Shown here: positions 46,101 through 64,000 of the stretch, piece after piece
How positions within the stretch are numbered: position 1 is the first letter of the stretch
Layout: every line of letters starts with the position of its first letter
Source: an uncultured Gammaproteobacteria bacterium
Lineage (GTDB): Bacteria; Patescibacteriota; Microgenomatia; Levybacterales; UBA12049
Length of the DNA: 64,000 nt
Assembly (NCBI GenBank): GCA_965230895.1
Contig: OZ246394.1
Span: 712,627-776,626 of the forward strand
Reading direction: 5' to 3'
Made by a program: the position numbers and the translations under genes
Notes under the pieces: generated by a model
Told to the model about the DNA's origin: nothing
Databases searched by the model: none
Seen by the model: the letters and a program-made list of their open reading frames with translations, nothing else

Positions 46101-49100
46101 TTCACTTCAGAAATTGTACCATTTCTGTATTGGAAGATGTATGTCTTTGTAGGATTTGCTAACTTCGCAGACTTTGCCTGTTCCAGAGAGTTGGTCTGAA
46201 CAACTTTTGGTGTATTCTCTCTATAAATAAACCATAAGCCATCTGATAATCCTACAGGGAATAACCAAACACCTTCATACTTTGCTGGAACATCGACAAA
46301 ATAAACTGTGTCATTTGGAGTAAAGCTCGCATAACCAGTTCTAAAGGTTAGAAGCATACTCTGAGCAATCGCTCCTGACTGGGACCATTTAAGCTGTTCT
46401 GTTTGATTTTGATTAAAGTGCAGAAATGAAATACACCCAAAGACCACTAATAAGACAGATACAAATATAGTTTTTTGTCGAATAATCTGTTTTATAAGAG
46501 CATAAACAAGAACGACAAATGCGAGACTCAAACCAAATGATGCAAGGTATTCATATCGTGGAGAAATATTTCCTAAAGGTAAGAACGGAAGCAAACTAAC
46601 AAACGCAAATACAATTCCAAATATCACAAGCTGTGCATTATCATGTTTTACAAACTTAAGAACTTGCTTCTTAGAACGATAGAACATGTAACTTAATCCG
46701 CCAATAATAACGATTCCTGCAACGCTTAATACTAACCACATTGAGCGAAGGTTTCCACGGATTCCATCATATGCAGCAATAAATGAAGTTCCGCTTAGGA
46801 ATAAACCGATATATCCAAGGAAGTTACCAATAACATTTGGAACTACCTTAGCTAAGTTGTAACTGTAATCACCGCCTCCCGAGAAAGCTCCAGAAACGGA
46901 TCTCATTACAAAATAGAGTATGACCAGGATGATAAATGGTAGATATGTTTGGATAAACTTAAATGAACGCTTTGGTTTGTAAATAAAGATATCTAAGACA
47001 ACAAATATAAGTGGGATGATCACTGAAATTTCATAAGAAACAAAAGCCAAAGCACTTAAAATAACTGCTGCAATATATGCAACAATAGATTTCTTCATTC
47101 TGAAATAGTGATAACAAATCATTGCATACAAGATAAACATTGAGGCAAGTCCAATAGAAAGGGTTGAGAACCAGAACATGTTTTCAGTGTGTACGGGTAG
47201 CAATGCGAAAGTTGCTGCGGTTAAAAATCCTATCAATCGTGACTTTGCATAACGGCTTCCCAAGATATAGACAGCAATTGTTGTTAGGAAGTGTACCAGC
47301 AAGAGGAAGACATGGTAGCCTTCTGGATTGAATGAGAAAAGCATATATAAGAAATACACAATTACTTTATCCAGAGGTCGGTAGAAAAAGTCTTGAGCAT
47401 TTACAAAATACATTGCCAAATCAGATGGAGCCGCAGTTGCTGCCCAACGAAGCCAGGTGAAGTCATCAGCTACAAAGAAGTTTTTAATCGATGCTGCATA
47501 TCCGACTAGTATAATGATCATAAGGTACAGTACAAGCATGATTGGTGATGTAAAGAAAGATTTCAATGAAGATTTATAATCAATTGGTTTCTTCAAAAAG
47601 AGTTTTGCTGCCCCAACGCCAATACCTGTTAATATCCAGAATGGCTCTGCAACTTTTGAAGCTTCGAAAACATCAATAAGTACTGCATTAATGAGCAAGC
47701 CAATCGTTCCACCAGCAAGACCAAACACAAGCGCTTTAACGATAGGATCTTTTATCTCTTTCACACTATGCTTCATGAAAATCCCAAAGATAACGAAAAT
47801 AAATAAGAAGGCCAATAATCCAACCAAGCCCGTCTCCCCTAACGCTCTTAAGTAATCATTATCTGTTGCTAGCGTCAGTGAAGAATATCCTGTCCCAAAG
47901 ATTGGACTAAAGAGGAACGCATTCCAGTTTCTTGGCCACTCTGCCTGGAAACGTGTTGTAAATGAAATATCAAGTGCATAGGCTTTTTTAATAAGAAAGC
48001 TTCCTGAGACAGAAGAGATTGCAATCTCACCACTTTGGATTTTTCGCAATTGCTCTTCAGTCAAAACAGCAGTGTAACCACTATCTGTTGGAGGCTTATT
48101 CGCACCCACAGTAAAGTCGCTTGCAGGAGGGATCTCAGCATTTTTTTGCTCTTCTGCTGTTTTTGCATCCTTAATAATTTTTTGCAAATCAGAAGGTAAG
48201 GCTTCATCGGTAGAAACGACCTGAACTTCTTGAATAGTATTGGAAAACCTCTGGATTGTCGCATTACCAAAAAGCATCATGACTCCAACACTTACTACCA
48301 TAATTGGAATGATCCATTTTTTCTTCTGCCAAAGGACAAGCATTCCAACAACTCCTATTACATATGCACCAAACGACGTTCGTGAAGAGGTAAAGTTGAG
48401 TACTTCCAATGAAAGAAGCGCAAGGAGAATAATAGCTATACGCAAGGACCAACGCTTAACCGCAAATGCGAGAGCAATAAGGACAGGTATAACCATGACC
48501 ATATATGCTGATAAATCATAATGTCCGCCAAATGTAGAACTCACTCTAGATAATTCATTGAGGCATAAGGGTGTACCTTTAGCAAATTCTTCGTTACCTG
48601 TGAGGAATGCTGGGAAACAGAAAGGATATGTTTGGAAGAAATCAGGAAAAAGCTTCCATAGAATCGTATAAAACCTCTGCCCAAATCCATAAAAAACAAT
48701 TCCAAATATAGTAATACAGAGAGTTATGAGATAGAAATAAACATCTTTTACGTTTTTAACTGATGAGAAGGCGATAAAAAAGAGAATCATATACTCTATT
48801 CGCCGGAAATACTGCAACCAGGCAACACTTGGGAAGAAGTTAGCGAGGGTTGGCGCTATAAAAGTAAGACAATAGATTAAAGAAGCTAATCCTGCAATCC
48901 AATAAAGAAGTAGTGCATAACCTTCAGGTCGAGGAAGAGAAACCTTTCTTCGAACAAGCTGCACAAACCAAATAAGTGCTAGTGCAAGAATAACAAAGTC
49001 TTCTAGACGAATATAAACCCATGTATTATCAATATTTATACTTGGAAGTTTTGGATAGAGTGCAGTAAAAAGGATCGCAAATGCGACTCCAAAACGGAGG

Positions 49101-49135
49101 ATATTATTATCAATAAGTTGCAATAATTTCTTCAT
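46097..49135 (-). CDS. 1012 aa fusion membrane protein. The N-terminal half is an O-antigen ligase/polymerase-like (Wzy_C) domain. The C-terminal half is a second polytopic GT-C-like domain.
   Basis: Residues ~1-470 form about 10 TM helices plus a large loop ending in 'IFGTGYSS...ATDNDYLRALGETGLVGLLAF', which resembles the WaaL/Wzy_C signature (HN.YL..L.E.G..G). Residues ~520-1012 form a second ~11 TM bundle with the loop motif 'FVADDFTWLRWAA...YRPLD', a DD motif typical of GT-C. Confidence 0.5.
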   Translation of the reverse strand: MKKLLQLIDNNILRFGVAFAILFTALYPKLPSINIDNTWVYIRLEDFVILALALIWFVQLVRRKVSLPRPEGYALLLYWIAGLASLIYCLTFIAPTLANFFPSVAWLQYFRRIEYMILFFIAFSSVKNVKDVYFYLITLCITIFGIVFYGFGQRFYTILWKLFPDFFQTYPFCFPAFLTGNEEFAKGTPLCLNELSRVSSTFGGHYDLSAYMVMVIPVLIALAFAVKRWSLRIAIILLALLSLEVLNFTSSRTSFGAYVIGVVGMLVLWQKKKWIIPIMVVSVGVMMLFGNATIQRFSNTIQEVQVVSTDEALPSDLQKIIKDAKTAEEQKNAEIPPASDFTVGANKPPTDSGYTAVLTEEQLRKIQSGEIAISSVSGSFLIKKAYALDISFTTRFQAEWPRNWNAFLFSPIFGTGYSSLTLATDNDYLRALGETGLVGLLAFLFIFVIFGIFMKHSVKEIKDPIVKALVFGLAGGTIGLLINAVLIDVFEASKVAEPFWILTGIGVGAAKLFLKKPIDYKSSLKSFFTSPIMLVLYLMIIILVGYAASIKNFFVADDFTWLRWAATAAPSDLAMYFVNAQDFFYRPLDKVIVYFLYMLFSFNPEGYHVFLLLVHFLTTIAVYILGSRYAKSRLIGFLTAATFALLPVHTENMFWFSTLSIGLASMFILYAMICYHYFRMKKSIVAYIAAVILSALAFVSYEISVIIPLIFVVLDIFIYKPKRSFKFIQTYLPFIILVILYFVMRSVSGAFSGGGDYSYNLAKVVPNVIGNFLGYIGLFLSGTSFIAAYDGIRGNLRSMWLVLSVAGIVIIGGLSYMFYRSKKQVLKFVKHDNAQLVIFGIVFAFVSLLPFLPLGNISPRYEYLASFGLSLAFVVLVYALIKQIIRQKTIFVSVLLVVFGCISFLHFNQNQTEQLKWSQSGAIAQSMLLTFRTGYASFTPNDTVYFVDVPAKYEGVWLFPVGLSDGLWFIYRENTPKVVQTNSLEQAKSAKLANPTKTYIFQYRNGTISEVK

Positions 49136-50929: not shown

Positions 50930-51472
50930 TTAATTCCCCGGATATGTAACGTGCAAACGATTTTCTTCAATTCCTAATATATTCATTGCATCTTTCTTGG
51001 TTGCTTCAGAAATACAAAGGATCGCATCGGATTCTTTCTTCACCCAAGCAAGTTTTCTTTTTTGTGTTGCTATAATTTTTTTATCAGTTTCTTCAGGAAA
51101 CTTATAAATAATTAAATCATATAAAATAGTAATTTTTTTCGCTTTTTTAACTGGAGGTTCTGTCCAGTCAGAAGTAATAAAAACATCTACATCTCCTATT
51201 AGATTTTCGATTGGCATGATATGCAATTTATTCCAGAGCATGTCTAATAAGGTTGGTGGAAATTTAAAAGATTTAACGTGTACATTTGAAGATTGAGGCA
51301 AATTCAAATTTGGGACTTTTCCACGTAAACTCGAAAAGAACAAAACATATTCATTTTTATTATCTTGAAGGAGCAATTGCGTAAGTGTCTGTTTAAGATA
51401 ATTTGCCACACCAGTACGACTGTAGGCCATTTGTGAGATATCAATTCCAATCTTCATAGGAGTTCCTAGCAA
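50930..51472 (-). pseudogene. Truncated GT4 glycosyltransferase comprising the N-terminal Rossmann domain only (180 aa). Probable gene remnant or pseudogene.
   Basis: 'MKIGIDISQMAYSRTGVANY...LCISEATKKD...HVTYPGN*' is the donor-less N-terminal half of a GT4. It stops right after the interdomain 'YPG' motif, and the next full-length GT4 starts 3 nt downstream. Confidence 0.4.
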
Positions 51473-51510: not shown

Positions 51511-51723
51511 TTATGATTTTTTCAGATGTAAAAGTATAATCCCTAAAAGGATAAATCCAGCAGCATACATAACTAACCTCTCCGCTGTAAAAAATATCTG
51601 TAATTGAAAAAGCGGTATTGATAAACAAAAAGAGATTACTCCTACAACAATAGCCCACTTTGGATTTCTTCTCCAAATCAGAGCAATGATAACAATTATA
51701 AATAGAATATCTTGTGGTTTCAT
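51511..51723 (-). CDS. Small two-TM membrane protein
   Basis: A 70 aa protein with two hydrophobic helices. Confidence 0.3.
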   Translation of the reverse strand: MKPQDILFIIVIIALIWRRNPKWAIVVGVISFCLSIPLFQLQIFFTAERLVMYAAGFILLGIILLHLKKS

Positions 51724-52553
51724 TTTTTCTTAATAAAAATAATAATTATTATTATCAAAATTGAAAAGATAATACTCGTTATTACTCCTCTATCAACCCA
51801 TTCTTGTGGAGTATATTGAACAGTGAATGTATAGGTTCCATCTTGTGGCAAGATAAAACTGTTTAATCGGTTGTATTGTTTGCTTGAAATACTATCTGAG
51901 CCGACTTTCGCTGCCCACTTCGCATCATATCCTTCAGAAAATATAAGCTGGTCTCCTTTGCGCGCATTCTTTACGTATACCTCATAATGTACAGGAGACA
52001 CATAAGTATATGTTACTTCAAGATTTTTACTTGTTGTCCAGAAGTGATCTTTAGGATTATTGAGTTCATAAACAACTATCTTCCCATACGTTTTTACCCT
52101 CTTTAACCATTTGATCCTGTCAATAGTTGCTACTACTGAGAGATATTGTTTCTCATCATATTGCCTGTCAGTGTTGAAGATCTGCTTTTCAGAATCAAAT
52201 GGAACAATAACATATTTAACACTTGCTTCACTGAGGAATTTTTCGGTATCCTTTCTTTCTAAGTATTTAAGAACTGCATCTTGATTAGGAGCATTAAATA
52301 ATTCTTGTGCAGAGATAGAACGATGCTTCTCAGACATATAGACGTAATGTGGCGATGCTGGAATCCATAAAACCCGGTAAAATGCATTTTGTCTTGAGAG
52401 AAAATCTTTAAGCTCGACGTATTCGTTTGGCAATTGAGAATTTCTAAGTGTTCCAGTAAACTCTCCGGTAAAAGCAGGTTTTAATAGGAATACAAAATAC
52501 AGAAAGACTCCCAACAAAAACAGCCATGGCAAAAGTTTATTTAGTATTTTCAT
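51720..52553 (-). CDS. C-terminal (periplasmic domain plus C-terminal TM) part of a split member of the large membrane-protein family (see 56013..58184)
   Basis: 'KIVVYELNNP...EVTYTYVSPVHYEVYVKNARKGDQLIFSEGYDAKWAAKVG...SKQYNRLNSFILPQDG' aligns with 'ISDKNAEITYEKVSPARYTVDVKH...QIIFDNPYSEKWEMYLG' of 56013..58184 and with the C-terminus of 58181..60328. Confidence 0.5.
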   Translation of the reverse strand: MKILNKLLPWLFLLGVFLYFVFLLKPAFTGEFTGTLRNSQLPNEYVELKDFLSRQNAFYRVLWIPASPHYVYMSEKHRSISAQELFNAPNQDAVLKYLERKDTEKFLSEASVKYVIVPFDSEKQIFNTDRQYDEKQYLSVVATIDRIKWLKRVKTYGKIVVYELNNPKDHFWTTSKNLEVTYTYVSPVHYEVYVKNARKGDQLIFSEGYDAKWAAKVGSDSISSKQYNRLNSFILPQDGTYTFTVQYTPQEWVDRGVITSIIFSILIIIIIIFIKKK

Positions 52554-53760
52554 ATTTCTTCTTATTTAAAACTATATAAATTTTTTCAATAGCGTATGGA
52601 ATAAGAACTGAATAAGCAAGTGCTATTAAGATATACCATTTCGAAGGATCCCGGAAAGCATTAAATCCTGGTAGATTATTAAATAACCATAGGTAGACAT
52701 CTCCAAATGGATCGTTAGCACCCTTTGCGAGGAATGCTCCTAAAATTCCTACTAGTGCAAAATAAAGAATGTACTTTTTTCGCGCTTTATCTTTGCTGTC
52801 GATAAAAAGCATTGAAGAATATGCTAAGAGTGGTAGAACCAAAAATTCCGGTTTCATAAATCCTACTTTCCCAAAAATATTATCCGGCCAATTAGGATGC
52901 AATAAAGAAATTGTATTCTCGAATTTTGCAAAACTCAAAAATTTAACGCTTTCATTCCCTATTACATAACCACCATCTAATTGAGAGACAGATCCACCGC
53001 CTGCAAAGAATGCTGGCATTGTCCAAAATGCCAAAATGATAGCAGTAGACAAAAATGGAATTATACATGTAAAAAGGATAAGCAAAAGAAACTTTTTGAA
53101 AACAAACCCAGAGATAATTTCGTGCACAAAGGGCAAATAAATGATAACAGCTACGAGCGCAACATATCCCACACGAATATCCAAGCTCATTTGCAAGCTT
53201 AAACATACTCCAGCAATTAAAGAAGGGCTCAATATTTCTTTTATTCTTATCTTTTTTGATGATAATAAACTTATTTGATTAATAGTCGATAGAAAGAAAT
53301 ATACAACTATTGGCGTGATTGCATATGCTAGAGCAAAATGAACCTGACCACCTGATACAATCATCAAAATATAGGAATTAATTGTATAAATGAAACTTGC
53401 TAATAAAGCGAAAGATTTTGATACAAGTGTTTTCTGTGCAAAAAACCAAGCAGAAACAAAAGAAAGGATAAGAAATGGAAAATAGAAAACAACTTTATCT
53501 ACGAGATCCCAACTTAAGCCAAATATATTTCCAATCCCCATCGCAACGCCATTACTCGCATATCCCCAAAGTAATGGAATGAACGTACCGCCAAGCCCTG
53601 AATCTCGCATAGTACTCCAAGCGTATGGATAGACTGAATATAAACTATACGATTCTTTAAAATAAAACAGAGAATCATAACCTGCGAGAAAACCTGGAAC
53701 GAACCAATTGTGGGTTACAAACAAAGTAATAAATAAAACAGGTAAAGCAATAAAAATCAT
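52537..53760 (-). CDS. N-terminal polytopic (about 11 TM) part of the split large membrane protein
   Basis: A 407 aa hydrophobic protein. Its stop overlaps the start of 51720..52553 by 17 nt in another frame. Confidence 0.45.
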   Translation of the reverse strand: MIFIALPVLFITLFVTHNWFVPGFLAGYDSLFYFKESYSLYSVYPYAWSTMRDSGLGGTFIPLLWGYASNGVAMGIGNIFGLSWDLVDKVVFYFPFLILSFVSAWFFAQKTLVSKSFALLASFIYTINSYILMIVSGGQVHFALAYAITPIVVYFFLSTINQISLLSSKKIRIKEILSPSLIAGVCLSLQMSLDIRVGYVALVAVIIYLPFVHEIISGFVFKKFLLLILFTCIIPFLSTAIILAFWTMPAFFAGGGSVSQLDGGYVIGNESVKFLSFAKFENTISLLHPNWPDNIFGKVGFMKPEFLVLPLLAYSSMLFIDSKDKARKKYILYFALVGILGAFLAKGANDPFGDVYLWLFNNLPGFNAFRDPSKWYILIALAYSVLIPYAIEKIYIVLNKKKYENTK

Positions 53761-53762
53761 AC

Positions 53763-54878
53763 TTAGATTTTTGTGTATTTATGCTCAAATAGTGCTTGTA
53801 CTGCACCAAATGCAGTAAATAAAAGTATCCAAAATGCTATCCTTTCTACTAGGTTTTGATAATGACCAAATGACACAAAAATAGAAATTAAAAGTAACCC
53901 CACAACTAATACAAAACTTGCTTTGCTCCTATATTTATTTACAATACAATTAAATAACCAAAGCATTAATACTGTCAAGGTTACAAGGATATTTAAATTC
54001 TCAATAAAAAGGATATCAAAAAGTAGACATAATCCAATAAGTACATCAAAAATGGTAAGCTCTTCAATTGCTCTTCCTAAAACTTTTAACCCTGTAACCT
54101 GAGCTGTGGATTTACTAATTTTTTTTGTCTGCCGATTGTAATATTTACTTATAATTTCTCCTAAAAATGTTCTCCAAAGATAATAAAAGATAAAAGGTAA
54201 AAGAAAAATAAATACAATTAGATAAAATTCTATATGTGAGAATGCATATAGAACCTTTTGTATTATGAAATGAGTTAGCAGCGGCGTATTACTTACCAAC
54301 TCACCTTTATTAAATTGGTACAGAGACACAATAATAGGTTGTTTGTCAGTTAAAGTTAAAGCGTTTCCTTTTTGTCCGTTAAGAGAGATTATTTCAAATT
54401 GGTAATTTTTCCCCTGAGAATTAGTTATAGGTGGAAAGCCAAATGGAAAATGAACAAGCTCTAAGAATTGGCCTCCAGAATATTTTTGTTCATAAATCCA
54501 TTTCTGATCATTCTTTTCTTTTAAGCGGAATACAATCGTATCATCTTGCTTTTTTAATATTCCAATTTCTTCATGTTCTTTATTATAATTATGGAGTCGC
54601 ACAGCAACTGCACCTAAATTATTTTCTTCTGCTTTAAATTCTCCTTTGATCGTTTGTTTTGCATAGAGTTCTCCTTGACTTGGAGATATTGTATATGAAC
54701 TCTTATGTTCATAGGGAAGAATCGTATAACTTGCATTATGCGTAAGTGAAGAAAAGACAGAAAGTCCAAACCCTATCAGAAGCAGTATCCCAGGAATGAT
54801 AATATTTGCGATGATTCTATTTGCAAATAAGGCTTTACTTGCCCCTCCTATGTGCTGAGATATTTTTTTTACCTTCAT
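53763..54878 (-). CDS. Hypothetical membrane protein with an N-terminal anchor, a ~180 aa exported domain and a C-terminal multi-TM bundle
   Basis: A 371 aa protein. Codons 3-6 contain an A8 homopolymer (54863-54870 on the plus strand). It is embedded in the glycan island. Confidence 0.4.
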   Translation of the reverse strand: MKVKKISQHIGGASKALFANRIIANIIIPGILLLIGFGLSVFSSLTHNASYTILPYEHKSSYTISPSQGELYAKQTIKGEFKAEENNLGAVAVRLHNYNKEHEEIGILKKQDDTIVFRLKEKNDQKWIYEQKYSGGQFLELVHFPFGFPPITNSQGKNYQFEIISLNGQKGNALTLTDKQPIIVSLYQFNKGELVSNTPLLTHFIIQKVLYAFSHIEFYLIVFIFLLPFIFYYLWRTFLGEIISKYYNRQTKKISKSTAQVTGLKVLGRAIEELTIFDVLIGLCLLFDILFIENLNILVTLTVLMLWLFNCIVNKYRSKASFVLVVGLLLISIFVSFGHYQNLVERIAFWILLFTAFGAVQALFEHKYTKI

Positions 54879-56032
54879 AGTTCTCCCAATGCTTTGGTAA
54901 GGACATTATCCCATTCAAATTCTTGAGCATATTTAATTGCATTTTCTCTCATACTTTTATATTTCTTTTTATCTTTCATAATTAGAATTGTTGCATCAGC
55001 AAATGCTTGTTTATCATATGCTGATACCAAACCACAATTTCTCTTCGTTAACTCTTCAGATATCTGTGTCAAGGAAGTTGTAATGACTGGTAATCCTGTA
55101 GCAATATATGTTTTCACTTTGGAGGGATCAGCATAATAGGACCATCTTGCAAGTTCTTCACTATACATTGCAGCTGCGACACCACAGGATGCCAATATTT
55201 CTTCCACATCTTCATGCTTTTCCATATATCCCAAAAAATCAACGTACTTATCTATTTTTAATTTTTTTGATTGTTTTTTGAGTTCACCTTCGTATGAACC
55301 CATCCCAATAATTTTAAATGTGAAGTCAGGAATTTGTTTAACAATGAGTGGAATAGCATCTAAAACAAGTTGTATACCTTGATGAGGAGCCAACCCTCCT
55401 GCATAAACAAGTGTATGAGGATTTACTTCCTTAAACTCCTTTCGCTTAATTCGATTAAACCAGATACCTATAGGAACGATTAGTTGCCTATTAAAAATTT
55501 TTCTGTTCATCCCAAGCAGTTGTTCTCTTCCTTCTGCAACACGGTCGGTTAATATCCAGGTTGCATCTGCATAACGAACAGCAAATTTTTCAAGGCTATG
55601 ATAGATCGAATTAAGTAATTGATTATCAAAGCGTTTCGGTACAAAGTCGATCGTATAATATATAACTTTTTTCAACTTCCCTAATGTTCTTAAGATAAGT
55701 CCTGTGAATGTATTAAGATTATCGAGTGAAATTATGAGATCCCAAGTTCCACCCGCTTTAAAGACCCAATAGATAGAGAGTAAAACGTCTTTTATATATT
55801 GAATAATACTTGGTAATTGTATGTTTTTATATTGTATCTGTTTGACCAGTGTTCCTTTTTCATAAAGCTCAAAAACCGGTCCTGGACGATCTTTAACAAA
55901 AAAAAGTGGATGCCCCATATACAAAAGTCTTTTTACTTTCTTTTTCAGGAAATACTCTTTTAGATCCTGCGCAGGAACAGTCGTTAAAACATGCGCTAAA
56001 ATTATTATTTCTTTATTTTTTATATCTTGCAT
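54875..56032 (-). CDS. Glycosyltransferase, GT-B (GT4-like)
   Basis: A C-terminal domain 'YAGGLAPHQGIQLVLDA...KVKTYIATGLPVITTS' has GT4-like topology. Confidence 0.55.
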   Translation of the reverse strand: MQDIKNKEIIILAHVLTTVPAQDLKEYFLKKKVKRLLYMGHPLFFVKDRPGPVFELYEKGTLVKQIQYKNIQLPSIIQYIKDVLLSIYWVFKAGGTWDLIISLDNLNTFTGLILRTLGKLKKVIYYTIDFVPKRFDNQLLNSIYHSLEKFAVRYADATWILTDRVAEGREQLLGMNRKIFNRQLIVPIGIWFNRIKRKEFKEVNPHTLVYAGGLAPHQGIQLVLDAIPLIVKQIPDFTFKIIGMGSYEGELKKQSKKLKIDKYVDFLGYMEKHEDVEEILASCGVAAAMYSEELARWSYYADPSKVKTYIATGLPVITTSLTQISEELTKRNCGLVSAYDKQAFADATILIMKDKKKYKSMRENAIKYAQEFEWDNVLTKALGEL

Positions 56033-58184
56033 AGAATAAATGTATTATAAAGTATAAGGTTATTACAGCAAATGTAAATAAACTTATTATATCTCCAAAT
56101 GCGAAAACGGCCTGAGGAGCAAAGAATATTGTCGCAGTAAAGCTTACACTTTTATCAGAGTTTATAGTTATTTGGTTTGGATATTCTTTTTTTAGTTTAT
56201 CTACATCAATTACCCAAGCATTGAGATATTCATTATATCGCATATGAGTTTTTAAGATATCCTTATTCAAGAAAAATTGTGTCTCATGTAGATTTCTTGT
56301 ATCCCCTAAATACATTTCCCACTTCTCAGAATATGGATTATCAAAAATGATTTGAGATTTTTGAGAAACATGCTTTACATCAACAGTATATCTTGCTGGT
56401 GATACCTTTTCATAAGTGATCTCTGCATTTTTATCAGAAATACTTATTAAGGGCTTTTGAACTTTATTGTTTTCTACGACTTTTTTGATTTGATAGACGT
56501 TTATATCTCGAGCTTTATCAGTTGTAGATATATAGCCTGAATCTGGCGTTCCTTGGAGATGTCCAACAAATACCAAGCGATTATCTTTAGCTAATTGAGC
56601 ATTTATTTGGGCTGAATTGTTTTGCAGATTGTTATAGATCATGATTGTATCAATATTATGATCTGTTAAATAATCAATTGTACTTGATTTGGTTATATCA
56701 CTTATCTTTGCATAATGCGCTTGCGCATAAGGATCAAAAGGGCTTGCTCCACATGCAAACGCTTTATTATGAACAATCTGGGCTTTTAATTGATATGTTT
56801 CAGGACATCCAGTGACAACATCATTTTGAGTCATTGGATACGTAGCAATGGCATGAATATCCTCATTATCTTTGATTGATTGATAAAGTTGTACTTCCTT
56901 AGAAAAATTACTCAAGCGCCACCAAGATTGATCAACGTTTAGCGAGTTGCCAACCAAGACAAGCGTTAAGATTGAGAACAGTATAACTTTGTAGTTTTGG
57001 TGTAACTTCCTGTAGTACATGCTTTGCATAAAACCATGAATTGCAAGCCCAAACAATATCCCTAAGAATAAATAGGCCAACAAAACCATACGAGCCACCC
57101 CTCTAAAAATTCCGAAATACTTAAAATAAATTTCATTGATCCAATATGTATAAGGTGAATATGCTGATAAGATAAGTGCACCGAGGAAACAACATAATAT
57201 AGCAACTTGAATACTTGTTCTTCGCAAGAATACAAGCCCACAAAAAACAATTAAAGGTACTATTACATATAAGATATTCCCTATATACGGAATATATGTT
57301 TTTAGCATGCTGTATTCAGGTGGAGAGAAATAATAGAGAATACTGAGTAATTCGTTCTTTGCGATAGAATTTCTACCTGTAGCAACTGCGGCCTCACTAT
57401 TGAATAGGTAGAAGTTTGTCACAAAGAAGTTAAAATTGCATGCAATTAAAACGAGTAATAAAACTGGATAATAGATACATGCGCTTTTTAAACTGGAAAT
57501 TAATGACTCTCTTTTATAAGCAAAAAAGATAAGTGGAGAAAGTAGCCCTGAGAAAAATGCATAATAAGCATCTGTATTAAACAGCAATGCAAAAGTCGCT
57601 GAAGAGAGTAGCAAGCTAAACACTGTCTTTCTATCTAAGAAATATACTAGTGATAAGAAATAAAACGGGATGAGCTCAATATGATTGACTGATAGTTGAG
57701 CTCTTGCCATATGCACATGATAAAAAGAGAAACTAAAAATAATGCCCGCCAAAAAACTTGCTGCTTTATTTTTTGTGAGATAATAACAAAATAAATAAGC
57801 CCCAATTGCTGATAAGGGATATGTAATGAGAGAAGAGATGTTTGTTAAGAGGATTAAGTTATTCCAATTAAAACCGATTATATATTGCATAATAAATGCC
57901 TGAGAGACATAGACCAAATTCCTAAATGGCATAAAAGTTATGTCAAATCCGAAGGGATAAGAGAAAAACTGATTAATGTAGTAAAGATATCCCTCAGATT
58001 GGATATGAATCAAATACCATTGATACCAAAGTCCTCCATCTGCGTCAACGTCCGGCATTCCATAGTAAGTATTTATATGAGGTAGCTTGTTATAAAAGAT
58101 GATAGCAGTTAATGCAGAGTATACAAGAAAGAAAAAGATGATTGTAAAAAGTTGATTATTGAAAAGTCGTTTTATGTGCCTCAT
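56013..58184 (-). CDS. Large (723 aa) polytopic membrane protein with an N-terminal ~12 TM domain, a ~280 aa extracytoplasmic domain and a C-terminal TM anchor. Paralog family, GT-C/YfhO-like architecture.
   Basis: The first loop carries 'GMPDVDADGGLWYQWYL', an acidic D-x-D-x-D motif. It is about 50% identical by eye to 58181..60328 over the TM domain ('NHIELIPFYFLSLVYFLDRK' versus 'NHIEFIPLYFLSLFYFLNRK'). Confidence 0.55.
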   Translation of the reverse strand: MRHIKRLFNNQLFTIIFFFLVYSALTAIIFYNKLPHINTYYGMPDVDADGGLWYQWYLIHIQSEGYLYYINQFFSYPFGFDITFMPFRNLVYVSQAFIMQYIIGFNWNNLILLTNISSLITYPLSAIGAYLFCYYLTKNKAASFLAGIIFSFSFYHVHMARAQLSVNHIELIPFYFLSLVYFLDRKTVFSLLLSSATFALLFNTDAYYAFFSGLLSPLIFFAYKRESLISSLKSACIYYPVLLLVLIACNFNFFVTNFYLFNSEAAVATGRNSIAKNELLSILYYFSPPEYSMLKTYIPYIGNILYVIVPLIVFCGLVFLRRTSIQVAILCCFLGALILSAYSPYTYWINEIYFKYFGIFRGVARMVLLAYLFLGILFGLAIHGFMQSMYYRKLHQNYKVILFSILTLVLVGNSLNVDQSWWRLSNFSKEVQLYQSIKDNEDIHAIATYPMTQNDVVTGCPETYQLKAQIVHNKAFACGASPFDPYAQAHYAKISDITKSSTIDYLTDHNIDTIMIYNNLQNNSAQINAQLAKDNRLVFVGHLQGTPDSGYISTTDKARDINVYQIKKVVENNKVQKPLISISDKNAEITYEKVSPARYTVDVKHVSQKSQIIFDNPYSEKWEMYLGDTRNLHETQFFLNKDILKTHMRYNEYLNAWVIDVDKLKKEYPNQITINSDKSVSFTATIFFAPQAVFAFGDIISLFTFAVITLYFIIHLFYARYKK

Positions 58185-60328
58185 AGAGTATTTTTATTCT
58201 TTAATCTCCAAAAATACATTATAAAGTAAATAGCAAGACATATCAAAACAATATTTCTAATTAACGAGCTAATTTGTATATAGATCGATGGCGTAAATAG
58301 AACCGTAGCTTTTAAGGAGCTATTTGCATCAATATTTTTAATTTTCCAACCATTCGCATAATCATTGATTGTTATATGTTCAGCTTCTAAAGGAGCAATA
58401 CTCGGAATTGCTAGAGTATTAAATGTCATTTGGCTTCCATTGTATATTTGCCACTTATCAGAGAATGGCTGATCAAAGACTATAACTGTTTCTGGGTTGA
58501 TATTTGGAACAAAAATTTCATATTGATATTGAGAAATCTTTTTTGTATAGACGTTACCGTTTTCTATTGTAAAAATATTTTTAGGCGGACGGCTTACTAC
58601 TTCTTTTATCTGATATACAGAAATGTCTCTCGATTTGTTATTGGAAGTAACATAATCACTATCTATTGGTTGAGTGTACCTTCCTACAAACTTTAATCGT
58701 TCATTATTAAGAAGCGTCTTATTAATTTCTAGACTATTAGGCAGTAAATTATTATAAATAATGATTGTGTCTACATTATACTTTACAAGCAGATCTATTG
58801 TGTCTTGACTTGATATATCTTTAATCTTTTTTTGATATTCAATTGATTCTTTGGAGAACGGACTTGCTCCTGTTACGATTTTCTTATTGTGAACTATTTG
58901 TCCAAGTAATTGATAGGTACGCGGATTTCCGTAATCAACAAAATCTAACTCAACAGGATATGGTGCAATAACTTTAATTGAGGAATTTTCTTTTATTGGT
59001 TCATAAAGTTTTGCTATCTTGGAAAAATCAGAATACATCTTCCAACTTGCATCATGATTTAACCCAATCGCTACTACAAAAAATGCTAATAACAAACTTA
59101 TCAATATCTTCTTCTTGCCTGCAATCTGAGTTATTAATACCCCTATCATTAATCCTTGGAATAGATAGACCACATGGTACATTCTTGCAACACTTCTAAA
59201 CATTCCAAAGTAATGAAAATACAACTGGTTCAGCCAATAGAATAATGGCGTATATGCTGATAATATAACAGCTATCAAAGCACAGAAGAATAAAGTTTTA
59301 TATACCCTATTTTTAAATTGGAAGAATAAACCAATAATTAGGATTATTGGAATCAGTGCACCAAAGTAAGAAAACGATTTATTAAATAAGTAAATGATGA
59401 TGCTTGTTTCAGGAAGACTAAAATAAAAGCTTAATGGTAATAACTCATTTCTATAATTAGTGACCCGACCCGATTGGACTAAGTATTGATGGTCAAAAAG
59501 TAATATATTGGAAATTATGAAATTTAAGTTAAGTAAAACGAGCAAGACAAGAAGCGCTCCATAATAGACTCCAATAGTTCTTATCTTTGATAAAATACTC
59601 TCCTTTTGATAAAAAAGAACAATAACTATAGATATGAGACCACAGAAAAATGCGTAATAAGCATCTGCATTAAAGGTAATACTAAATACAAATGCAGAAA
59701 GAACTAAAGAGACTATGCTTTTCCTATTAAGGAAGTAAAACAGACTTAAAAAGTATAACGGTATAAACTCAATGTGGTTAATGGACATTTGCCCTCTCCC
59801 TGCCAAAACGAAGCTAAAAGAAAAAGCATAAATAAGCCCGCAAACGAAACTGCCCATATAACTTCTTGTGAGGTAAAAACATAAACATGCAGCACTTATT
59901 GCAGCTAATGGGTAGACCAGTAACGAAGAAATATTAGTTATTAAAATAAGATTTTGCCATGAGAAACCAAACATTTTTAGCAGGGCAATGTGTACTGAAT
60001 AAATCAATGTTTCAAAGGGTTTAAATGTAATATCAAATCCAAATGGAAAACCAATGTAATCAGTAATTTCATAAAGCTCCTTTTTCTGTTCAAGAAAAAC
60101 AAGGAACCATTGATACCAAAGTCCTCCATCAGTATCAATATCTGGCATTGCATAACGAGTATCTAGGAAGGGCAAACGATGGTGGAATATTAGGAGAGTA
60201 AGAATAAGATAGATAAGAAATCCTATTATCGATACACTAACAAATTGCTGGACTTTATTTTGTCCATCTATAACGTTAGTAATCTTTTTCAAAAAACTAC
60301 TTTTCTGTTGATATCGATTTTGATTCAT
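58181..60328 (-). CDS. Large (715 aa) polytopic membrane protein, tandem paralog of 56013..58184
   Basis: It carries 'AMPDIDTDGGLWYQWFL' and has the same domain order. The C-terminal exported domain is homologous ('ISVYQIKEVV...YEIFVPN...FDQPFSDKWQIYNG'). Confidence 0.55.
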   Translation of the reverse strand: MNQNRYQQKSSFLKKITNVIDGQNKVQQFVSVSIIGFLIYLILTLLIFHHRLPFLDTRYAMPDIDTDGGLWYQWFLVFLEQKKELYEITDYIGFPFGFDITFKPFETLIYSVHIALLKMFGFSWQNLILITNISSLLVYPLAAISAACLCFYLTRSYMGSFVCGLIYAFSFSFVLAGRGQMSINHIEFIPLYFLSLFYFLNRKSIVSLVLSAFVFSITFNADAYYAFFCGLISIVIVLFYQKESILSKIRTIGVYYGALLVLLVLLNLNFIISNILLFDHQYLVQSGRVTNYRNELLPLSFYFSLPETSIIIYLFNKSFSYFGALIPIILIIGLFFQFKNRVYKTLFFCALIAVILSAYTPLFYWLNQLYFHYFGMFRSVARMYHVVYLFQGLMIGVLITQIAGKKKILISLLLAFFVVAIGLNHDASWKMYSDFSKIAKLYEPIKENSSIKVIAPYPVELDFVDYGNPRTYQLLGQIVHNKKIVTGASPFSKESIEYQKKIKDISSQDTIDLLVKYNVDTIIIYNNLLPNSLEINKTLLNNERLKFVGRYTQPIDSDYVTSNNKSRDISVYQIKEVVSRPPKNIFTIENGNVYTKKISQYQYEIFVPNINPETVIVFDQPFSDKWQIYNGSQMTFNTLAIPSIAPLEAEHITINDYANGWKIKNIDANSSLKATVLFTPSIYIQISSLIRNIVLICLAIYFIMYFWRLKNKNTL

Positions 60329-61370
60329 CGTAACTTCTTAAATCGGGTTTATAACCAAATGCATGCATGACAGTATGATAAATGATAAGACTTGCAGTAA
60401 AAATGCACAGTGGGACATGGATTAAATAACGGATATCTTTTCTGGTAACACAAAGTTTTATTGCATCAAAGAAACAAACAATTAGGGTGAATACATATGG
60501 AATAAATAAATATTTCTTATATTGCAAAGCATTTGAAGAATACTGTTCTCTCCCAGTAAACCCTGAAGCTCCCATTTCAGATACATGATAAATATTATTC
60601 TTTACTCTCCAGCGAATCTTGTTTAAATATTTTCCTAATGTATCTGAGGAATAATGAAAAAGTGCATCATTTTTGGTTAAAGCAATGTCTGCACCTTTAG
60701 AATTCATTAAGTAAAAAAAATGGGGAATTAATCTTATATCGTTTTTCGTCTCAGTAAAATGCTTTTTCATATAATTACCGTCAAACATGCTTCCTCCAGC
60801 AACTAATTCAATAATTGGCATCTGCTGGACATTGGTAAGATTAAAAATTGTATAGTCTTTTTTATTAGCGATGAAACCATATCGTTTTATCATCTGCTTA
60901 AGAAAGAAGCGCGCATCTTTCGACAAATTATAAATATATGCAGAGAACGGATCACCAAATTCATTTATATAGTTATTTATGAATGGATATCCTTTAGGAT
61001 TTTTATATCCACTTCCTATTACCGCTCTAACATTCTCATTTTCCTTAAACACTTGAATCTTCTTCTCCAAACTTCTTGGATTCTCAATTACTTCATCATG
61101 GTCTAAATAAAGTAAGTATGTACCTTGTGCTTGGGTATAACCCAAGAACTTCGCATTTACAGGATCTGTCTTAGGATTATTAATAACGATACATTTATAT
61201 TTTTCGGCGATTTTAAATGTACCATCAGTGGAACCACCATCAATCAATAAAATTTGTAATTTATTTTGAGGGAATGTTTGCTTCTTTATAGAATCTAATA
61301 CTTTTGGAAGTATATGTTCGGAGTTAAATGTAGCAATAATAATAGAAAGTTCAATTGTGCTTTTTGACAT
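60297..61370 (-). CDS. Glycosyltransferase family 2 with C-terminal TM helices (polyprenyl-phosphate sugar synthase-like: DPM1/GtrB/CsbB architecture)
   Basis: 'LSIIIATFNSEHILPKVLDSIKKQTFPQNKLQILLIDGGSTDGT' is the GT2 core. Hydrophobic C-terminal segments follow ('YLFIPYVFTLIVCFF', 'VPLCIFTASLIIY'). Confidence 0.6.
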   Translation of the reverse strand: MSKSTIELSIIIATFNSEHILPKVLDSIKKQTFPQNKLQILLIDGGSTDGTFKIAEKYKCIVINNPKTDPVNAKFLGYTQAQGTYLLYLDHDEVIENPRSLEKKIQVFKENENVRAVIGSGYKNPKGYPFINNYINEFGDPFSAYIYNLSKDARFFLKQMIKRYGFIANKKDYTIFNLTNVQQMPIIELVAGGSMFDGNYMKKHFTETKNDIRLIPHFFYLMNSKGADIALTKNDALFHYSSDTLGKYLNKIRWRVKNNIYHVSEMGASGFTGREQYSSNALQYKKYLFIPYVFTLIVCFFDAIKLCVTRKDIRYLIHVPLCIFTASLIIYHTVMHAFGYKPDLRSYDESKSISTEK

Positions 61371-61378
61371 AGTGAGAA

Positions 61379-62521
61379 TTAATCCTGCTCACTCTTAAAA
61401 AATTTTTTAAGGGAATCAATAACTGTTTTTACTTGATCTTCTTGCATTTCATAAAATAGAGGTAGACGCAATAATCTATCAGCAGTGGAATCAGTATTTG
61501 TCATAGTGCCTGAAACTCTCCCATACTTTTTCCCTGCTGGAGATGAATGCAGAGGAATATAATGAAAAACGGAAAGTATATCTTTATTTTTAAGCGTTTT
61601 AATCAATCTTTGTCTTGTTTCTAGATCTCTAAGTAAAATGTAATACATATGAGCATTATGCTCGCAATCTTTTGGCACAATAGGTCGTCGAATAAAACCT
61701 TCATTTTCAAGATCTTCTAAGGATTCATGATAGAGATCCCAGAGTTTTATTCTATTTTTGAGAATATCTTTCGAATTTTCTAACTGCCCCATCAAGAACG
61801 CTGAAACTATCTCTCCAGGAAGGTATGAAGAACCTATGTCTACCCATGTATATTTATCTACTTGTCCACGCAGAAACTGGCTTCGATTTGTACCTTTCTC
61901 TCTAATTATTTCAGCACGATCACTAAACTTTGCATTATTAATGAGCAATGCACCGCCTTCTCCAGAGATGACGTTTTTTGTCTCATGGAAACTATATGTT
62001 CCCATATCTCCAATTGTCCCTAAATGCTTTCCTTTATACTTTGCATCAAAGCCTTGTGCTGCGTCTTCAATAACATAAAGTTTATGCTTCTTCGCTATTT
62101 TTAGAATTGTATCCATTTCGCAACCGACACCCGCATAATGTACAACCATAATAGCTTTTGTTTTCTTTGTAATAGCTTGTTCAATGAGCTTTTCATCTAT
62201 ATTTAGCGTATCTTCTCGTATATCAATAAAGACGGGAATAGCTCCACGAAGAGCAATTGCATTGGCTGTAGAAACGAATGTATAAGAGGGCATAATGACT
62301 TCATCACCAGGTTGTAGATCTACAAGCAAAGCACTCATTTCAAGAGCACCTGTACAAGAATGCGTAAGAAGTGCTTTTGTTGTTCCGGTATGTTTTTCAA
62401 TCCATTTATGACAAAGTTTTGTGTAGTACCCATCCCCTGAAAGTTGCCCCAAAGAATGTGCATGGCTGATATATCCCATTTCTTTATGGGTAAGATAAGG
62501 TTTATTAAATGGGATTTTCAT
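61379..62521 (-). CDS. wecE: DegT/DnrJ/EryC1-family PLP-dependent sugar aminotransferase, WecE(RffA)-like
   Basis: 'IPFNKPYLTHKEMGYISHAHSLGQLSGDGYYTKLCHKWIEKHTGTTKALLTHSCTGALE' closely parallels the E. coli WecE N-terminus (FN.P...G.E..Y...A...G.L.GDG.FT..C..W.E...G....LLT.SCT..LE). Confidence 0.65.
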   Translation of the reverse strand: MKIPFNKPYLTHKEMGYISHAHSLGQLSGDGYYTKLCHKWIEKHTGTTKALLTHSCTGALEMSALLVDLQPGDEVIMPSYTFVSTANAIALRGAIPVFIDIREDTLNIDEKLIEQAITKKTKAIMVVHYAGVGCEMDTILKIAKKHKLYVIEDAAQGFDAKYKGKHLGTIGDMGTYSFHETKNVISGEGGALLINNAKFSDRAEIIREKGTNRSQFLRGQVDKYTWVDIGSSYLPGEIVSAFLMGQLENSKDILKNRIKLWDLYHESLEDLENEGFIRRPIVPKDCEHNAHMYYILLRDLETRQRLIKTLKNKDILSVFHYIPLHSSPAGKKYGRVSGTMTNTDSTADRLLRLPLFYEMQEDQVKTVIDSLKKFFKSEQD

Positions 62522-62532: not shown

Positions 62533-63243
62533 TTATAACCAGATATGGTAAACGTTTTCAACACTTTCTACTGTACAACCTATTTTTTCATAAAATGCGC
62601 AGGCTCCAATATTATTTTTTTGGGTCACTACCTGGATAGTATCAATACCCATAGTCTGAAATGCTGCAAAGGCCGCATGCATCAATTTTTTCCCTATATG
62701 TTTTCCGCGCTGTTTCTCATCAACTGCAAGTAAACCTATGTCACCTCTTTTATTTTTCACACTAAGAGTAATAAAACCTACCTCTTTACCATCTAACACG
62801 TATACAAGAACATTACTTGCAATTTTGCCATTTAAGGAATTAGTGAGCCATGTTGTGTATAAACGCTTGTATTGTTCTTCAGTAAAATGATTATCTCTTC
62901 TGAAGCGGGAATACACACCGCTTTGTAATGCGAGTGTAATTAAGGCCTCCGTTGCCAATTTATCTTTATACTCATGAATTTGAGGGTCTTTTGAGAACTT
63001 ATCATCATTAACGGATGTAACATATGTAACTTTTTCGTCAATAAGATTTCCAACACTTTGCAAGCTTTTGTTTGAGTCTATGTCTTTAGGGTTTGCAAAA
63101 GCATATACTAAATCAACTTTTTCTTCCTTCGCTTTCATTACTATATTGTTAAGAGCTTCTTCGTTCAAATCTTTTGCATCAATTTTCGCAACATTAAAAT
63201 TAAAAAAATTGGAATCCCACTGCAAAGGAATTAGAGTATTCAT
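62533..63243 (-). CDS. wecD: GNAT acyltransferase resembling WecD/RffC (dTDP-4-amino-4,6-dideoxygalactose N-acetyltransferase)
   Basis: 'LQWDSNFFNFNVAKI' corresponds to WecD 'LTWENAFFGVNSAIV'. 'IGLLAVDEKQRGKHIG' is the GNAT motif A. The C-terminus 'VESVENVYHIWL' corresponds to WecD 'VESTAYWLYR'. The gene is directly adjacent to the wecE-like gene. Confidence 0.55.
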   Translation of the reverse strand: MNTLIPLQWDSNFFNFNVAKIDAKDLNEEALNNIVMKAKEEKVDLVYAFANPKDIDSNKSLQSVGNLIDEKVTYVTSVNDDKFSKDPQIHEYKDKLATEALITLALQSGVYSRFRRDNHFTEEQYKRLYTTWLTNSLNGKIASNVLVYVLDGKEVGFITLSVKNKRGDIGLLAVDEKQRGKHIGKKLMHAAFAAFQTMGIDTIQVVTQKNNIGACAFYEKIGCTVESVENVYHIWL

Positions 63244-63244: not shown

Positions 63245-64000
63245 TTATTTAGTTACCGTATTCACAATAATTTCACTTGGACGCTGTTTGGGATTAATCG
63301 GTTTTTTTGCATATTTTTTATAATTCTTAAAAAAATCTTTTATTACATCAAAATTATTCTTACTAAGAACTACATTATGATTTAAGCCCTCAATACGCTC
63401 AGTTGCTGAACGAAGAATAAGACATGGTTTACCAAAATAATATGATTCTTCCTGATTACTTCCTCCATCCGTTACAATAAATTGACATCCATCAATTACT
63501 TTCATAAATTCCACGTAACTCAATCTTTCGCTAAGAATAATATTTTTATGTGCTTTAAGCTTTTGCATTAATCCTTTCTTTTCTAAGACAAGTATCGTAG
63601 GAGCGTGCATTACAAAAACACATTTCATATTCTTCGCGTGTGCAATAACATTATCAATCAACAATTCAACGAGTTGATCATTAAACAGGTTCTCCTGACG
63701 ATGCATAATAAAAAGGAAATATTTTTCTTTCTTAATACGATCCAACAGTTTTGATTGAACTTTTGTATTTATGACCATATTTAGACTATCCAATAAGGTA
63801 TTCTGGCCCGTATTAACTTTTAACCCGCTCTTATTCTTAAGATTATTAACAGCCCATTCATTAGGACATAGGTGAATATCTGTTAATTGAGAAGTAATAA
63901 CCCTGTCAATCTCTTCTGGAAAAGGATGGAAATAGTTAAATGATCGCAAACCAGCCTCAACATGAGCTATCTTTAAACCATACCGCTTCGCGATAAGTGC
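63245..64000 (-). CDS. wecB: UDP-N-acetylglucosamine 2-epimerase (WecB/MnaA family), partial. The N-terminus lies beyond the window end, and the ORF-track start at 63949 is internal.
   Basis: Manual translation upstream of 63949 continues in frame as '...ALIAKRYGLKIAHVEAGLRSFNYFHPFPEEIDR'. The HVEAGLRS/PFPEE motifs and the C-terminal 'FIVTDGGSNQEESYYFGKPCLILRSATER' define non-hydrolysing 2-epimerases. Confidence 0.7.
   Translation of the reverse strand, partial: ALIAKRYGLKIAHVEAGLRSFNYFHPFPEEIDRVITSQLTDIHLCPNEWAVNNLKNKSGLKVNTGQNTLLDSLNMVINTKVQSKLLDRIKKEKYFLFIMHRQENLFNDQLVELLIDNVIAHAKNMKCVFVMHAPTILVLEKKGLMQKLKAHKNIILSERLSYVEFMKVIDGCQFIVTDGGSNQEESYYFGKPCLILRSATERIEGLNHNVVLSKNNFDVIKDFFKNYKKYAKKPINPKQRPSEIIVNTVTK

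Follow-up and report, generated by a model that had tools for sequence, protein, structure and literature searches.

Membrane proteins of predicted GT-C glycosyltransferase fold beside a conserved gene cassette in a Patescibacteria genome

What kind of enzyme, if any, do the large membrane proteins encoded side by side in this candidate-phyla (Patescibacteria) genome represent? The question concerns bacteria whose cell-envelope biochemistry is nearly without experimental characterisation. In the window (the whole 64,000-nucleotide stretch of DNA that was analysed) these genes are A (56013..58184; 723 aa), B (58181..60328; 715 aa) and a third gene, C, which is split into C-N (52537..53760), a 407-aa transmembrane (TM) and putatively catalytic part, and C-C (51720..52553), a 277-aa part. 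These four ORFs, all on the minus strand, have exactly the coordinates given in an earlier, sequence-only reading of this DNA, which had taken them for three diversifying copies of one family of GT-C-type transferases with an outward-facing acidic first loop. Our analysis indicates that the most likely role of A, B and C is sugar transfer to a polymer of the cell surface, at the outer face of the membrane, and that they belong to two families, neither of which has been characterised so far.

Scans of A, B, C-N and C-C against Pfam and NCBIfam gave no match above the cut-offs, and PDB sequences searched with the A family, by phmmer and by profile, yielded no relevant match; no PDB sequence was significant for A, B or C. 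The YfhO model PF09586 (gathering score 28.5 bits) had no match at E ≤ 0.1 in A, B, C or the 27 A-family members, and its best score in distant relatives was sub-threshold (25.4 bits, E 5.9e-6). PTPS_related (PF10131; gathering score 26.4 bits) reached 11.6 bits (E 0.09) on B and matched three of the 27 A-family members below its gathering score (best E 1.9e-5), with precomputed matches on two homologues, P0002 and P0016. For the AftD model PF11847 (gathering score 26 bits) we found 9.7 bits on C-C and a precomputed match on a single family C homologue, P0093; C also had weak MmpA matches. Some databases call the Acidovorax and Chitinimonas homologues "YfhO family protein", and "RgtA/B/C/D-like" also occurs as a name. 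The PF10131, YfhO and PF11847 matches and these names are weak sequence links to the GT-C clan. As YfhO, PMT_2, PTPS_related and AftD all fell under their cut-offs, family membership is established at the level of fold and no lower. The locus indicates that Patescibacteria encode several GT-C enzymes unrecognised by any sequence model, and a literature search for Patescibacteria GT-C enzymes returned nothing specific.

Structure comparison, which the earlier reading had proposed alongside the Pfam search, did return GT-C enzymes. An AF2 model of A (pLDDT 87.8, pTM 0.86) was searched with Foldseek, and the top 29 matches were all GT-C enzymes (E 4.5e-9 to 7e-4); a model of family C (pLDDT 77) matched AftD (13.4, the top match), Pmt2, AftA, Pmt4, PglB, STT3B and ArnT. 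The N-terminal bundle of A, put at about 12 TM helices before, has 11 in the model; the exported domain of about 280 aa and its terminal TM anchor were described correctly (275 aa, residues 415–689, followed by one TM helix). This domain is modelled as alpha/beta plus beta-sandwich, and the first outer loop (residues 30–106) contains helices at 46–64 and 90–103. The best structural matches were oligosaccharyltransferases, enzymes whose donors are pyrophosphate-linked oligosaccharides.

The acidic first-loop motif proved to be a family character: MPD[VI]D[TA][DE]G is present in 27/27 A-family members and in the Acidovorax homologue, with D45 and D47 invariant and D49 at least 90% conserved. In A it reads MPDVDADG (residues 43–50; codons 58035..58058, minus strand) and lies directly after TM1 on the outer face; its counterpart in B is MPDIDTDG (residues 61–68; codons 60125..60148, minus strand). 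The side was assigned by applying the positive-inside rule to the TM helices of the A model, in which the cytoplasmic side, made up of seven segments (N-tail, five short loops and C-tail; 35 residues), has 13 K/R and 1 D/E. All invariant charged residues of A (D45, D47, D81, R161, H168, E170, D205, R271, E278 and R361) are in outer loops, and this outside position of the motif and its companions supports the GT-C reading. A lack of GT-C similarity and a cytoplasmic motif would both have counted against that reading, and neither was found. The hallmarks of the superfamily were seen instead: a TM helix number within the 8–13 range, a TM core superimposable on solved GT-C enzymes, and a long helical first outer loop with acidic residues just after TM1. 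A, B and C each have a cytoplasmic N-terminus, 11 TM helices, a long helical first outer loop that opens with conserved Asp (D45/D47/D49 in A, D29 in C), more invariant Arg, His, Glu and Asp in the remaining outer loops, and an exported alpha/beta plus beta-sandwich domain tethered by the last TM helix. On these models A, B and the split C are predicted to be integral-membrane glycosyltransferases with a GT-C fold (GT-C_A type), and we propose the MPDVDADG motif as a catalytic or metal-binding site.

A and B are homologous along their length, as had been noted (40% identity over 697 aa, E 1e-171), and the B stop codon and A start codon overlap by 4 nt; the picture of three diversifying copies, however, overstated the relatedness, since the three genes fall into two families and A and B diverged long ago. 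In a neighbour-joining tree A clustered with orthologues at 53–62% identity and B formed a lone deep branch, which ruled out a recent tandem duplication of A as the origin of B. The loci of relatives that we compared had one A-family gene only at the B/A position. B retains 51/51 invariant family residues, and is an extra, old paralogue of A with the same predicted catalytic residues and a divergent acceptor-side domain; that the A, B and C copies differ in specificity is speculation. Two other proteins were considered as further A paralogues and rejected, neither hhalign match being significant: the PMT_2 protein at 44640..46100 (probability 1.8%) and the C-terminal half of a 1012-aa Wzy_C protein (19%).

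The third gene had been read as a split copy of the same family; it is indeed split, its two pieces (407 + 277 aa) overlapping by 17 nt in different frames, but it belongs to a separate and far larger Patescibacteria family (>554 matches in the homologue search, compared with 26 for the A family), the other members of which are single genes of ~680 aa. The similarity claimed between the exported domains of C-C and A held for the end of the domain (26% identity over 115 aa, E 9e-6). The N-terminal half was said to have diverged; BLAST found no similarity to A there, and profile-profile comparison recovered homology over the whole length (hhalign probability 99.5%, E 9.9e-23, 598 columns). This alignment also displaced the idea that MRDSGLGG replaces the acidic motif in C: the motif aligns with PGFLAGYD, which contains the family-conserved D29, and GLGG falls opposite YPFGFD of A. 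Three other assemblies (Logan assemblies from different sequencing runs) have the identical 407 + 277 split, on which ground an assembly error was rejected, and the gene shows no decay, 101/104 highly conserved columns being kept across C-N and C-C. Each piece has its own start codon and contains TM helices, C-C consisting of one N-terminal TM helix, the exported domain and the terminal TM anchor. Because it is split, gene C may be inactive in this genome; we take it to be a second, AftD-like GT-C system that here, if it works, acts as two polypeptides. With its reproducible split, the gene is a natural experiment on whether a GT-C enzyme can function with its TM and exported parts on separate chains.

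An indication of what these proteins may use came from the genes next to B. A glycosyltransferase of the GT2 family and GT-A fold (60297..61370, minus strand; 357 aa, PF00535) combines its GT-A domain with a basic amphipathic helix and, at the C-terminus, two TM helices (segments at 286–335). It adjoins an A-family gene in 13 loci, spanning candidate-phyla MAGs as well as Paracidovorax, Acidovorax and Chitinimonas, and it matches the neighbour gene in Acidovorax at 42% identity over the full length, TM hairpin included (E 4e-112). Three further minus-strand genes, identified by domain matches and synteny, follow: a WecE-type dTDP-4-amino-4,6-dideoxyhexose transaminase (61379..62521; PRK11706, 617.9 bits, cut-off 375; TIGR02379, 615, cut-off 435), a GNAT acetyltransferase (62533..63243; Pfam Acetyltransf_1) that is WecD-like but under the WecD cut-off (102 bits, cut-off 219), and a UDP-GlcNAc 2-epimerase-family gene (63245..64000; PF02350) whose frame is open to the window end and runs past it. 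The cassette of epimerase, GNAT, WecE, membrane-anchored GT2 and A-family GT-C is kept across candidate-phyla MAGs and as far as Acidovorax. In the part of the cluster that lies within the window, no flippase gene of GtrA, MATE or Wzx type could be recognised; relatives have a Polysacc_synt (Wzx-type) gene upstream, at a position that here falls beyond the window end.

Three-component systems consist of a membrane-linked GT-A enzyme, a flippase and a GT-C enzyme; the GT-A and GT-C genes lie side by side, and the GT-C proteins, with 8–13 TM helices, are little alike in sequence and have an extracellular loop with a (modified) DxD (PMC8035078). A membrane-linked GT-A/GT2 enzyme encoded with a GT-C protein is what we found here, with a lipid-linked sugar as its presumed product, and the cross-phylum cassette suggests a GT2/GT-C lipid-linked-sugar relay. 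The GT2 was not assignable by sequence as GtrB-, DPMS- or ArnC-like: GtrB was unmatched, the DPMS match was weak (5.8e-4), and against known structures the N-terminal ~120 residues alone matched soluble GT2s. Since these matches are confined to the generic N-terminal part, we infer the relay from architecture and synteny.

The explanation that we favour, at a probability of about 60%, is that A, B and C are GT-C transferases that use polyprenyl-phosphate sugars outside the membrane. They would take a sugar from a polyprenyl-phosphate-linked donor at the outer face of the membrane and pass it to an acceptor at the cell surface, either a surface glycoprotein or a secondary wall polymer, which the surrounding GT4 / Wzy_C / phosphoglycosyl-transferase operon may build; the first-loop Asp would act as catalytic base and the beta-sandwich domain as acceptor binder. 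The A-family donor is probably made by the adjoining GT2. As the cassette always includes the WecE-type transaminase, GNAT and epimerase, the sugar may be a 4-acetamido-4,6-dideoxyhexose (Fuc4NAc/Qui4NAc type), with undecaprenyl phosphate as carrier, on the model of ArnC/ArnT, GtrB/GtrC and CsbB/YfhO. Donor, acceptor and sugar identity are thus all read from the gene neighbourhood, and a literature search brought up no specific report of Fuc4NAc/Qui4NAc in an Acidovorax glycan. A fuller reading, which we put forward tentatively and consider unlikely as a whole, joins these elements: a previously undescribed relay would load 4-acetamido-4,6-dideoxyhexose on undecaprenyl phosphate and attach it outside the cell, which would give GT-C enzymes a donor sugar new to them; new CAZy GT families would be founded by the A family and, independently, by family C; A and B would represent two acceptor specificities or a heterodimer; and split C would assemble from its two polypeptides. 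Were the relay true, a new sugar would join the few monosaccharides known to be donated from undecaprenyl phosphate. Extracytoplasmic glycosylation by GT2 and GT-C pairs is well known, and the gain is therefore incremental.

The gene content could also be read in another way, with A and B acting like the oligosaccharyltransferases PglB, AglB and STT3: the phosphoglycosyl transferase and GT4 enzymes encoded nearby would assemble a whole glycan on undecaprenyl pyrophosphate, and A and B would transfer it en bloc to a protein or polymer. The operon does encode a Bac_transf initiating enzyme and several GT4s, relatives have the Wzx-type gene mentioned above, and the exported domain resembles the globular core of AglB (3vu0). 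However, a regex scan for the WWDxG-type motif of STT3, PglB and AglB found it in none of 27 family A and 24 family C sequences, the operon already contains a Wzy_C ligase/polymerase-type protein, and the strict cross-phylum adjacency to a TM-anchored GT2 is a signature of a monosaccharide relay (PMC8035078). We consider en bloc transfer improbable.

We likewise give little credence to chain building by AftD/Emb-type GT-C enzymes, in which the proteins would polymerise or branch a wall polysaccharide, extending it processively from lipid-linked sugars, possibly with A and B as a heterodimer comparable to EmbA-EmbB or Pmt1-Pmt2. AftD, a mycobacterial arabinofuranosyltransferase (DUF3367 / PF11847), aligned structurally over the greatest length (547 residues with A, 534 with C), and its weak PF11847 matches and the MmpA matches on the C side agree with this; the 4-nt B/A overlap is consistent with co-translation of partners. 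Against it, relatives have a single A-family gene, so that an A/B heterodimer cannot be the general mode, and our proteins are without the acyl-carrier-protein or multi-CBM architecture of AftD/Emb: AftD has ~1,400 aa, several CBMs and a bound acyl carrier protein, compared with 680 aa for C, and the structural alignment has 14% sequence identity. With AftD highest in fold similarity and PF11847 under its cut-off, the relation of C to AftD is one at fold level only; processive and single transfer are indistinguishable from the present evidence. That the fold serves no enzyme at all, the proteins being scaffold or substrate-binding subunits (compare PIGU/GAB1 of the GPI transamidase) or the interrupted gene C a dead pseudogene, is very improbable, as the 51 invariant positions include an outer-loop cluster of acidic and basic residues that argues for catalysis, and split C keeps its conserved positions, start codons and TM helices.

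Several known systems come close to this locus. In the YfhO/CsbB/GtcA-type systems of Gram-positives, which add GlcNAc to LTA/WTA (PMC5836110, PMC8035078), the GT-C gene likewise lies beside a membrane-anchored GT2, the extracellular loop has an acidic (modified DxD) motif, and a large exported domain precedes the last TM helix; our locus differs in its host, a candidate-phyla bacterium, in a cassette that indicates an amino-dideoxyhexose, not GlcNAc, and in that its part within the window shows no flippase gene of the GtrA/GtcA type. GT136 (Citrobacter youngae ORF12), of a three-component pentofuranose system, resembles our proteins in predicted architecture: of its 11 TM helices the first is followed by a small helical domain and the last by a C-terminal beta-rich CBM, and its proposed catalytic Asp comes after TM1 as in our proteins (PMC11127046). 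It too was recognised via AlphaFold and not by sequence; GT136 systems have a phosphoribosyl-type donor synthase and a MATE flippase, whereas the neighbour here is a GT2. With ArnB/ArnC/ArnT, which place aminoarabinose on lipid A, the locus shares a gene logic, namely genes for a DegT-family aminotransferase and an N-acyl transferase grouped with those for a TM-anchored GT2 and a GT-C. In sequence, however, neither ArnT nor ArnC shows any similarity, the transaminase is of WecE type and not ArnB, and A, B and C carry an extra exported domain and terminal TM helix; the candidate-phyla host is not known to have a lipid A acceptor. The A family has close gene-for-gene counterparts in the culturable and genetically tractable Acidovorax/Paracidovorax, so that the function of a candidate-phyla surface-glycan enzyme is testable in a plant pathogen.

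Three more genes of this part of the cluster also lie on the minus strand. Between A and X lies a GT4 glycosyltransferase (54875..56032; 385 aa) found at the same place in candidate-phyla relatives, with 57–76% identity in loci L001, L003, L009 and L010. X itself (53763..54878) is a 371-aa membrane protein with no match in Pfam and NCBIfam scans; X-like genes occur in L001, L003, L009, L020 and L021, directly upstream of a family C gene in every case. The end of C-C shares 4 nt with a gene for a small membrane protein of 70 aa (51511..51723), which is conserved in the vicinity of family C genes, with 46–56% identity to small genes in L001, L003 and L020.

The four open reading frames of the sequence-only reading are all present on the minus strand, and their coordinates are precisely those it reported: A (56013..58184, 723 aa), B (58181..60328, 715 aa), and the two parts of the third gene C, C-N (52537..53760, 407 aa) and C-C (51720..52553, 277 aa). 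The overlap between A and B is 4 nt and that between C-N and C-C, in different frames, 17 nt; from ~37 kb to the window end every gene has the same orientation and is tightly packed, as in an operon. Pfam, NCBIfam and PDB sequence searches with A, B and C gave no significant matches; there was a sub-cut-off match to PF10131 (PTPS_related, GT-C clan), distant relatives gave sub-cut-off matches to YfhO, and C gave fragmentary matches to PF11847 (AftD) and MmpA. Structural matches of A were to STT3B (18.6), Pmt4 (17.5), PglB (16.6), AftD (16.5, 547 residues aligned), AftA (15.7), Pmt2 (15.3), AglB (14.8) and ArnT (14.6), and further to ALG12, DPY19, ALG9, AftB, PIGM, PIGU, ALG3 and ALG6. The earlier GT-C (membrane glycosyltransferase fold) interpretation is backed by structure prediction, topology and gene context. 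A, B and C are unclassified proteins within a familiar class of enzymes, in an extracytoplasmic glycosylation system of a well-known type.

Reading the helices of A from the predicted model and applying the positive-inside rule placed the N-terminus inside, followed by 11 TM helices, a 275-aa exported domain (415-689), a twelfth TM helix and an internal C-terminus; the seven cytoplasmic segments (35 residues summed) hold 13 K/R and 1 D/E. Every invariant charged residue, and N167, falls in an outer loop or at a loop edge (D45, D47, D81, R161, N167, H168, E170, D205, R271, E278 and R361), and D45 and D47, in the first outer loop, bear out the claim that the acidic motif faces outward. This loop (30-106) contains two helices and resembles that of GT-C_A enzymes, and all 27 family members carry its motif MPD[VI]D[TA][DE]G, as do Acidovorax homologs of only 28% identity. 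For the GT-C enzymes of systems like this, 8-13 TM helices, little similarity in sequence and an extracellular loop bearing a (modified) DxD have been described (PMC8035078); in several solved structures the catalytic Asp comes after TM1, and GT136 has 11 TM helices followed by a C-terminal beta-rich domain (PMC11127046).

A and B are homologous, as had been proposed, aligning over 697 aa at 40% identity (E 1e-171), and neither has lost any of the 51 invariant family residues. Their identity is 46-52% in the catalytic TM core and first loop, compared with 27% in the beta-sandwich and 18% in the terminal TM helix, a pattern that would fit shared chemistry with a differing acceptor side. Relatives have only one A-family gene at the corresponding position. 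In a neighbor-joining tree A clusters with its orthologs P0002, P0003 and P0004 (53-62% identity) and B forms a solitary deep branch, with at most 47% identity to any family member; judged by its sequence, B is an old additional copy. Two A-family paralogs also occur near the WecE-GT2 cassette in Acidovorax/Paracidovorax (locus L018, 4869..6761 (-) and 9890..11683 (+); also L014, L016 and L017), a duplication independent of that in the window.

C is not the diverged third copy that had been proposed; it belongs to a separate family. Among 5.8 billion proteins, a word-indexed search detected only 26 relatives of A (37-62% identity), and among 1.84 billion cluster representatives a profile search gave 63 matches at E <= 1e-30, trailed by 2,950 weak ones; the joined C sequence has more than 554 relatives, nearly all ~680-aa single proteins from Patescibacteria MAGs (Levybacteria and others). 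The similarity of C-C to A is limited to the final ~115 residues of the A exported domain (26% identity, E 9e-6), and by BLAST C-N showed no similarity to A. Profile-profile comparison of the two families revealed whole-length homology (probability 99.5%, E 9.9e-23, 598 columns, A 45-714 against C 23-683), which makes C a remote homolog of the same architecture. The acidic motif MPDVDTDGG of A aligns with PGxxxGGD of family C (PGFLAGYD in the window, with D29); MRDSGLGG, earlier taken for its counterpart, aligns instead with YPFGFD of A, and family C conserves only its GLGG.

The break in C falls in a short variable cytoplasmic linker joining two TM helices in the family alignment. Orthologs in the two closest loci are unsplit (670 and 694 aa). 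The same 407 + 277 split occurs in three Logan assemblies from different runs (SRR14271353, SRR14271365 and SRR14271366), so it is not an assembly artifact of this record. Together C-N and C-C keep 101 of the 104 columns that are >=95% conserved among intact homologs, the other three being conservative substitutions, and C-C has its own ATG start and TM helix; based on this, either the frameshift would be very recent or the enzyme may function as two chains. A naturally split GT-C gene is worth following.

In candidate-phyla genomes family C keeps its own conserved company. An X-like gene lies directly upstream in L001, L003, L009, L020 and L021, X (53763..54878 (-)) being a 371-aa membrane protein with no family match, one N-terminal TM helix, an outer domain of ~160 aa and 4-5 C-terminal TM helices. 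Nearby are a ~306-aa GT2 (absent from this neighborhood in the window), a membrane protein of 70 aa and a short protein made up of the GT4 N-terminal half alone. Further upstream there is often a ~775-aa protein with a C-terminal domain similar to the one in A/B. The window's 70-aa protein (51511..51723 (-), overlapping the C-C stop by 4 nt) has 46-56% identity to small genes beside family C or GT2 genes at other candidate-phyla loci and only a weak DUF2809 match; it could be a flippase or accessory subunit. The GT4-half gene (180 aa, 50930..51472 (-)), directly upstream of a complete GT4 gene, has counterparts of 178 aa in L001 and 191 aa (61% identity) in L020, and so is a conserved stand-alone protein rather than a fragment.

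The surrounding operon is a surface-glycan cluster, with a DUF4012 protein, a Bac_transf initiating phosphoglycosyl transferase, a nucleotidyl transferase, four GT4 genes, a PMT_2 GT-C, a Wzy_C protein, a hexapeptide acetyltransferase, the GT2, a WecE transaminase (its score exceeding the curated NCBIfam cut-off), a WecD-like GNAT and a UDP-GlcNAc 2-epimerase-family gene. The 669-aa DUF4012 protein (37034..39043 (-)) adjoins the initiating transferase at the apparent operon start. The 486-aa PMT_2 protein (44640..46100 (-)) brings the GT-C-type genes of the cluster to four; comparison of sequence profiles shows it to be unrelated to A. The 1012-aa Wzy_C protein (46097..49135 (-); 74% identity in L001) has its O-antigen-ligase/polymerase domain at aa 238-444, fused to a ~500-aa polytopic C-terminal half, which lacks a Pfam match, looks GT-C-like in beginning ADDFTW after a TM helix, and reached a probability of only 19% against the A family (hhalign).

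Scanning GTDB representative genomes, with subsequent tblastn mapping, found the epimerase, GNAT, WecE, GT2 (~355 aa) and A-family genes kept as a block in candidate-phyla MAGs (L001, L003, L008-L011) and, with no gene detectably matching the window GNAT, in the Betaproteobacteria Paracidovorax konjaci, P. cattleyae, P. anthurii, Acidovorax sacchari and Chitinimonas lacunae; in A. sacchari a Pfam-recognized GNAT gene occupies the GNAT position. The window and Acidovorax GT2 proteins are 42% identical end to end, including two C-terminal TM helices. At ~590 aa, the GT-C proteins of Acidovorax have neither the beta-sandwich nor the terminal TM helix, and databases name them 'hypothetical', 'YfhO family protein' or 'RgtA/B/C/D-like'; our literature searches found no experimental work on them. 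This cross-phylum cassette is testable in Acidovorax and worth following.

What the analysis shows is the GT-C fold, the conserved acidic and basic residues that face outward, and the conserved GT2 neighbor. We infer that the GT2 would load a sugar, probably an amino-dideoxyhexose made by the WecE and GNAT products, onto undecaprenyl phosphate at the inner face, and that after flipping A (and B) would transfer it to a surface polymer or glycoprotein outside the cell, with the first-loop Asp as base and the beta-sandwich as acceptor-binding module; C may catalyze a reaction of this kind within a second system, one that is AftD-like. This relay is weakened in that the sequence link of GT2 to GtrB, DPMS and ArnC is confined to the generic GT-A core and no flippase was identified in the window. 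Transfer of a glycan en bloc, as by an oligosaccharyltransferase (OST), would agree with the top structural matches, but the absence of an OST-type WWDxG motif and the pairing with the GT2 count against it. Another alternative is AftD/Emb-like chain building, possibly by an A/B heterodimer; that these are non-catalytic subunits of GT-C fold is unlikely given the conservation pattern.

Upstream of the glycan cluster is a division/cell-wall block (mraZ, rsmH/mraW methylase and a class B penicillin-binding protein, 29079..32436 (-)), which shows that the organism makes peptidoglycan. In two candidate-phyla relatives the glycan cluster has, a few kb away, bAvd / 23S_rRNA_IVP genes (L003, 21974..22181; L021, 9344..9718), which encode accessory proteins for diversity-generating retroelements.
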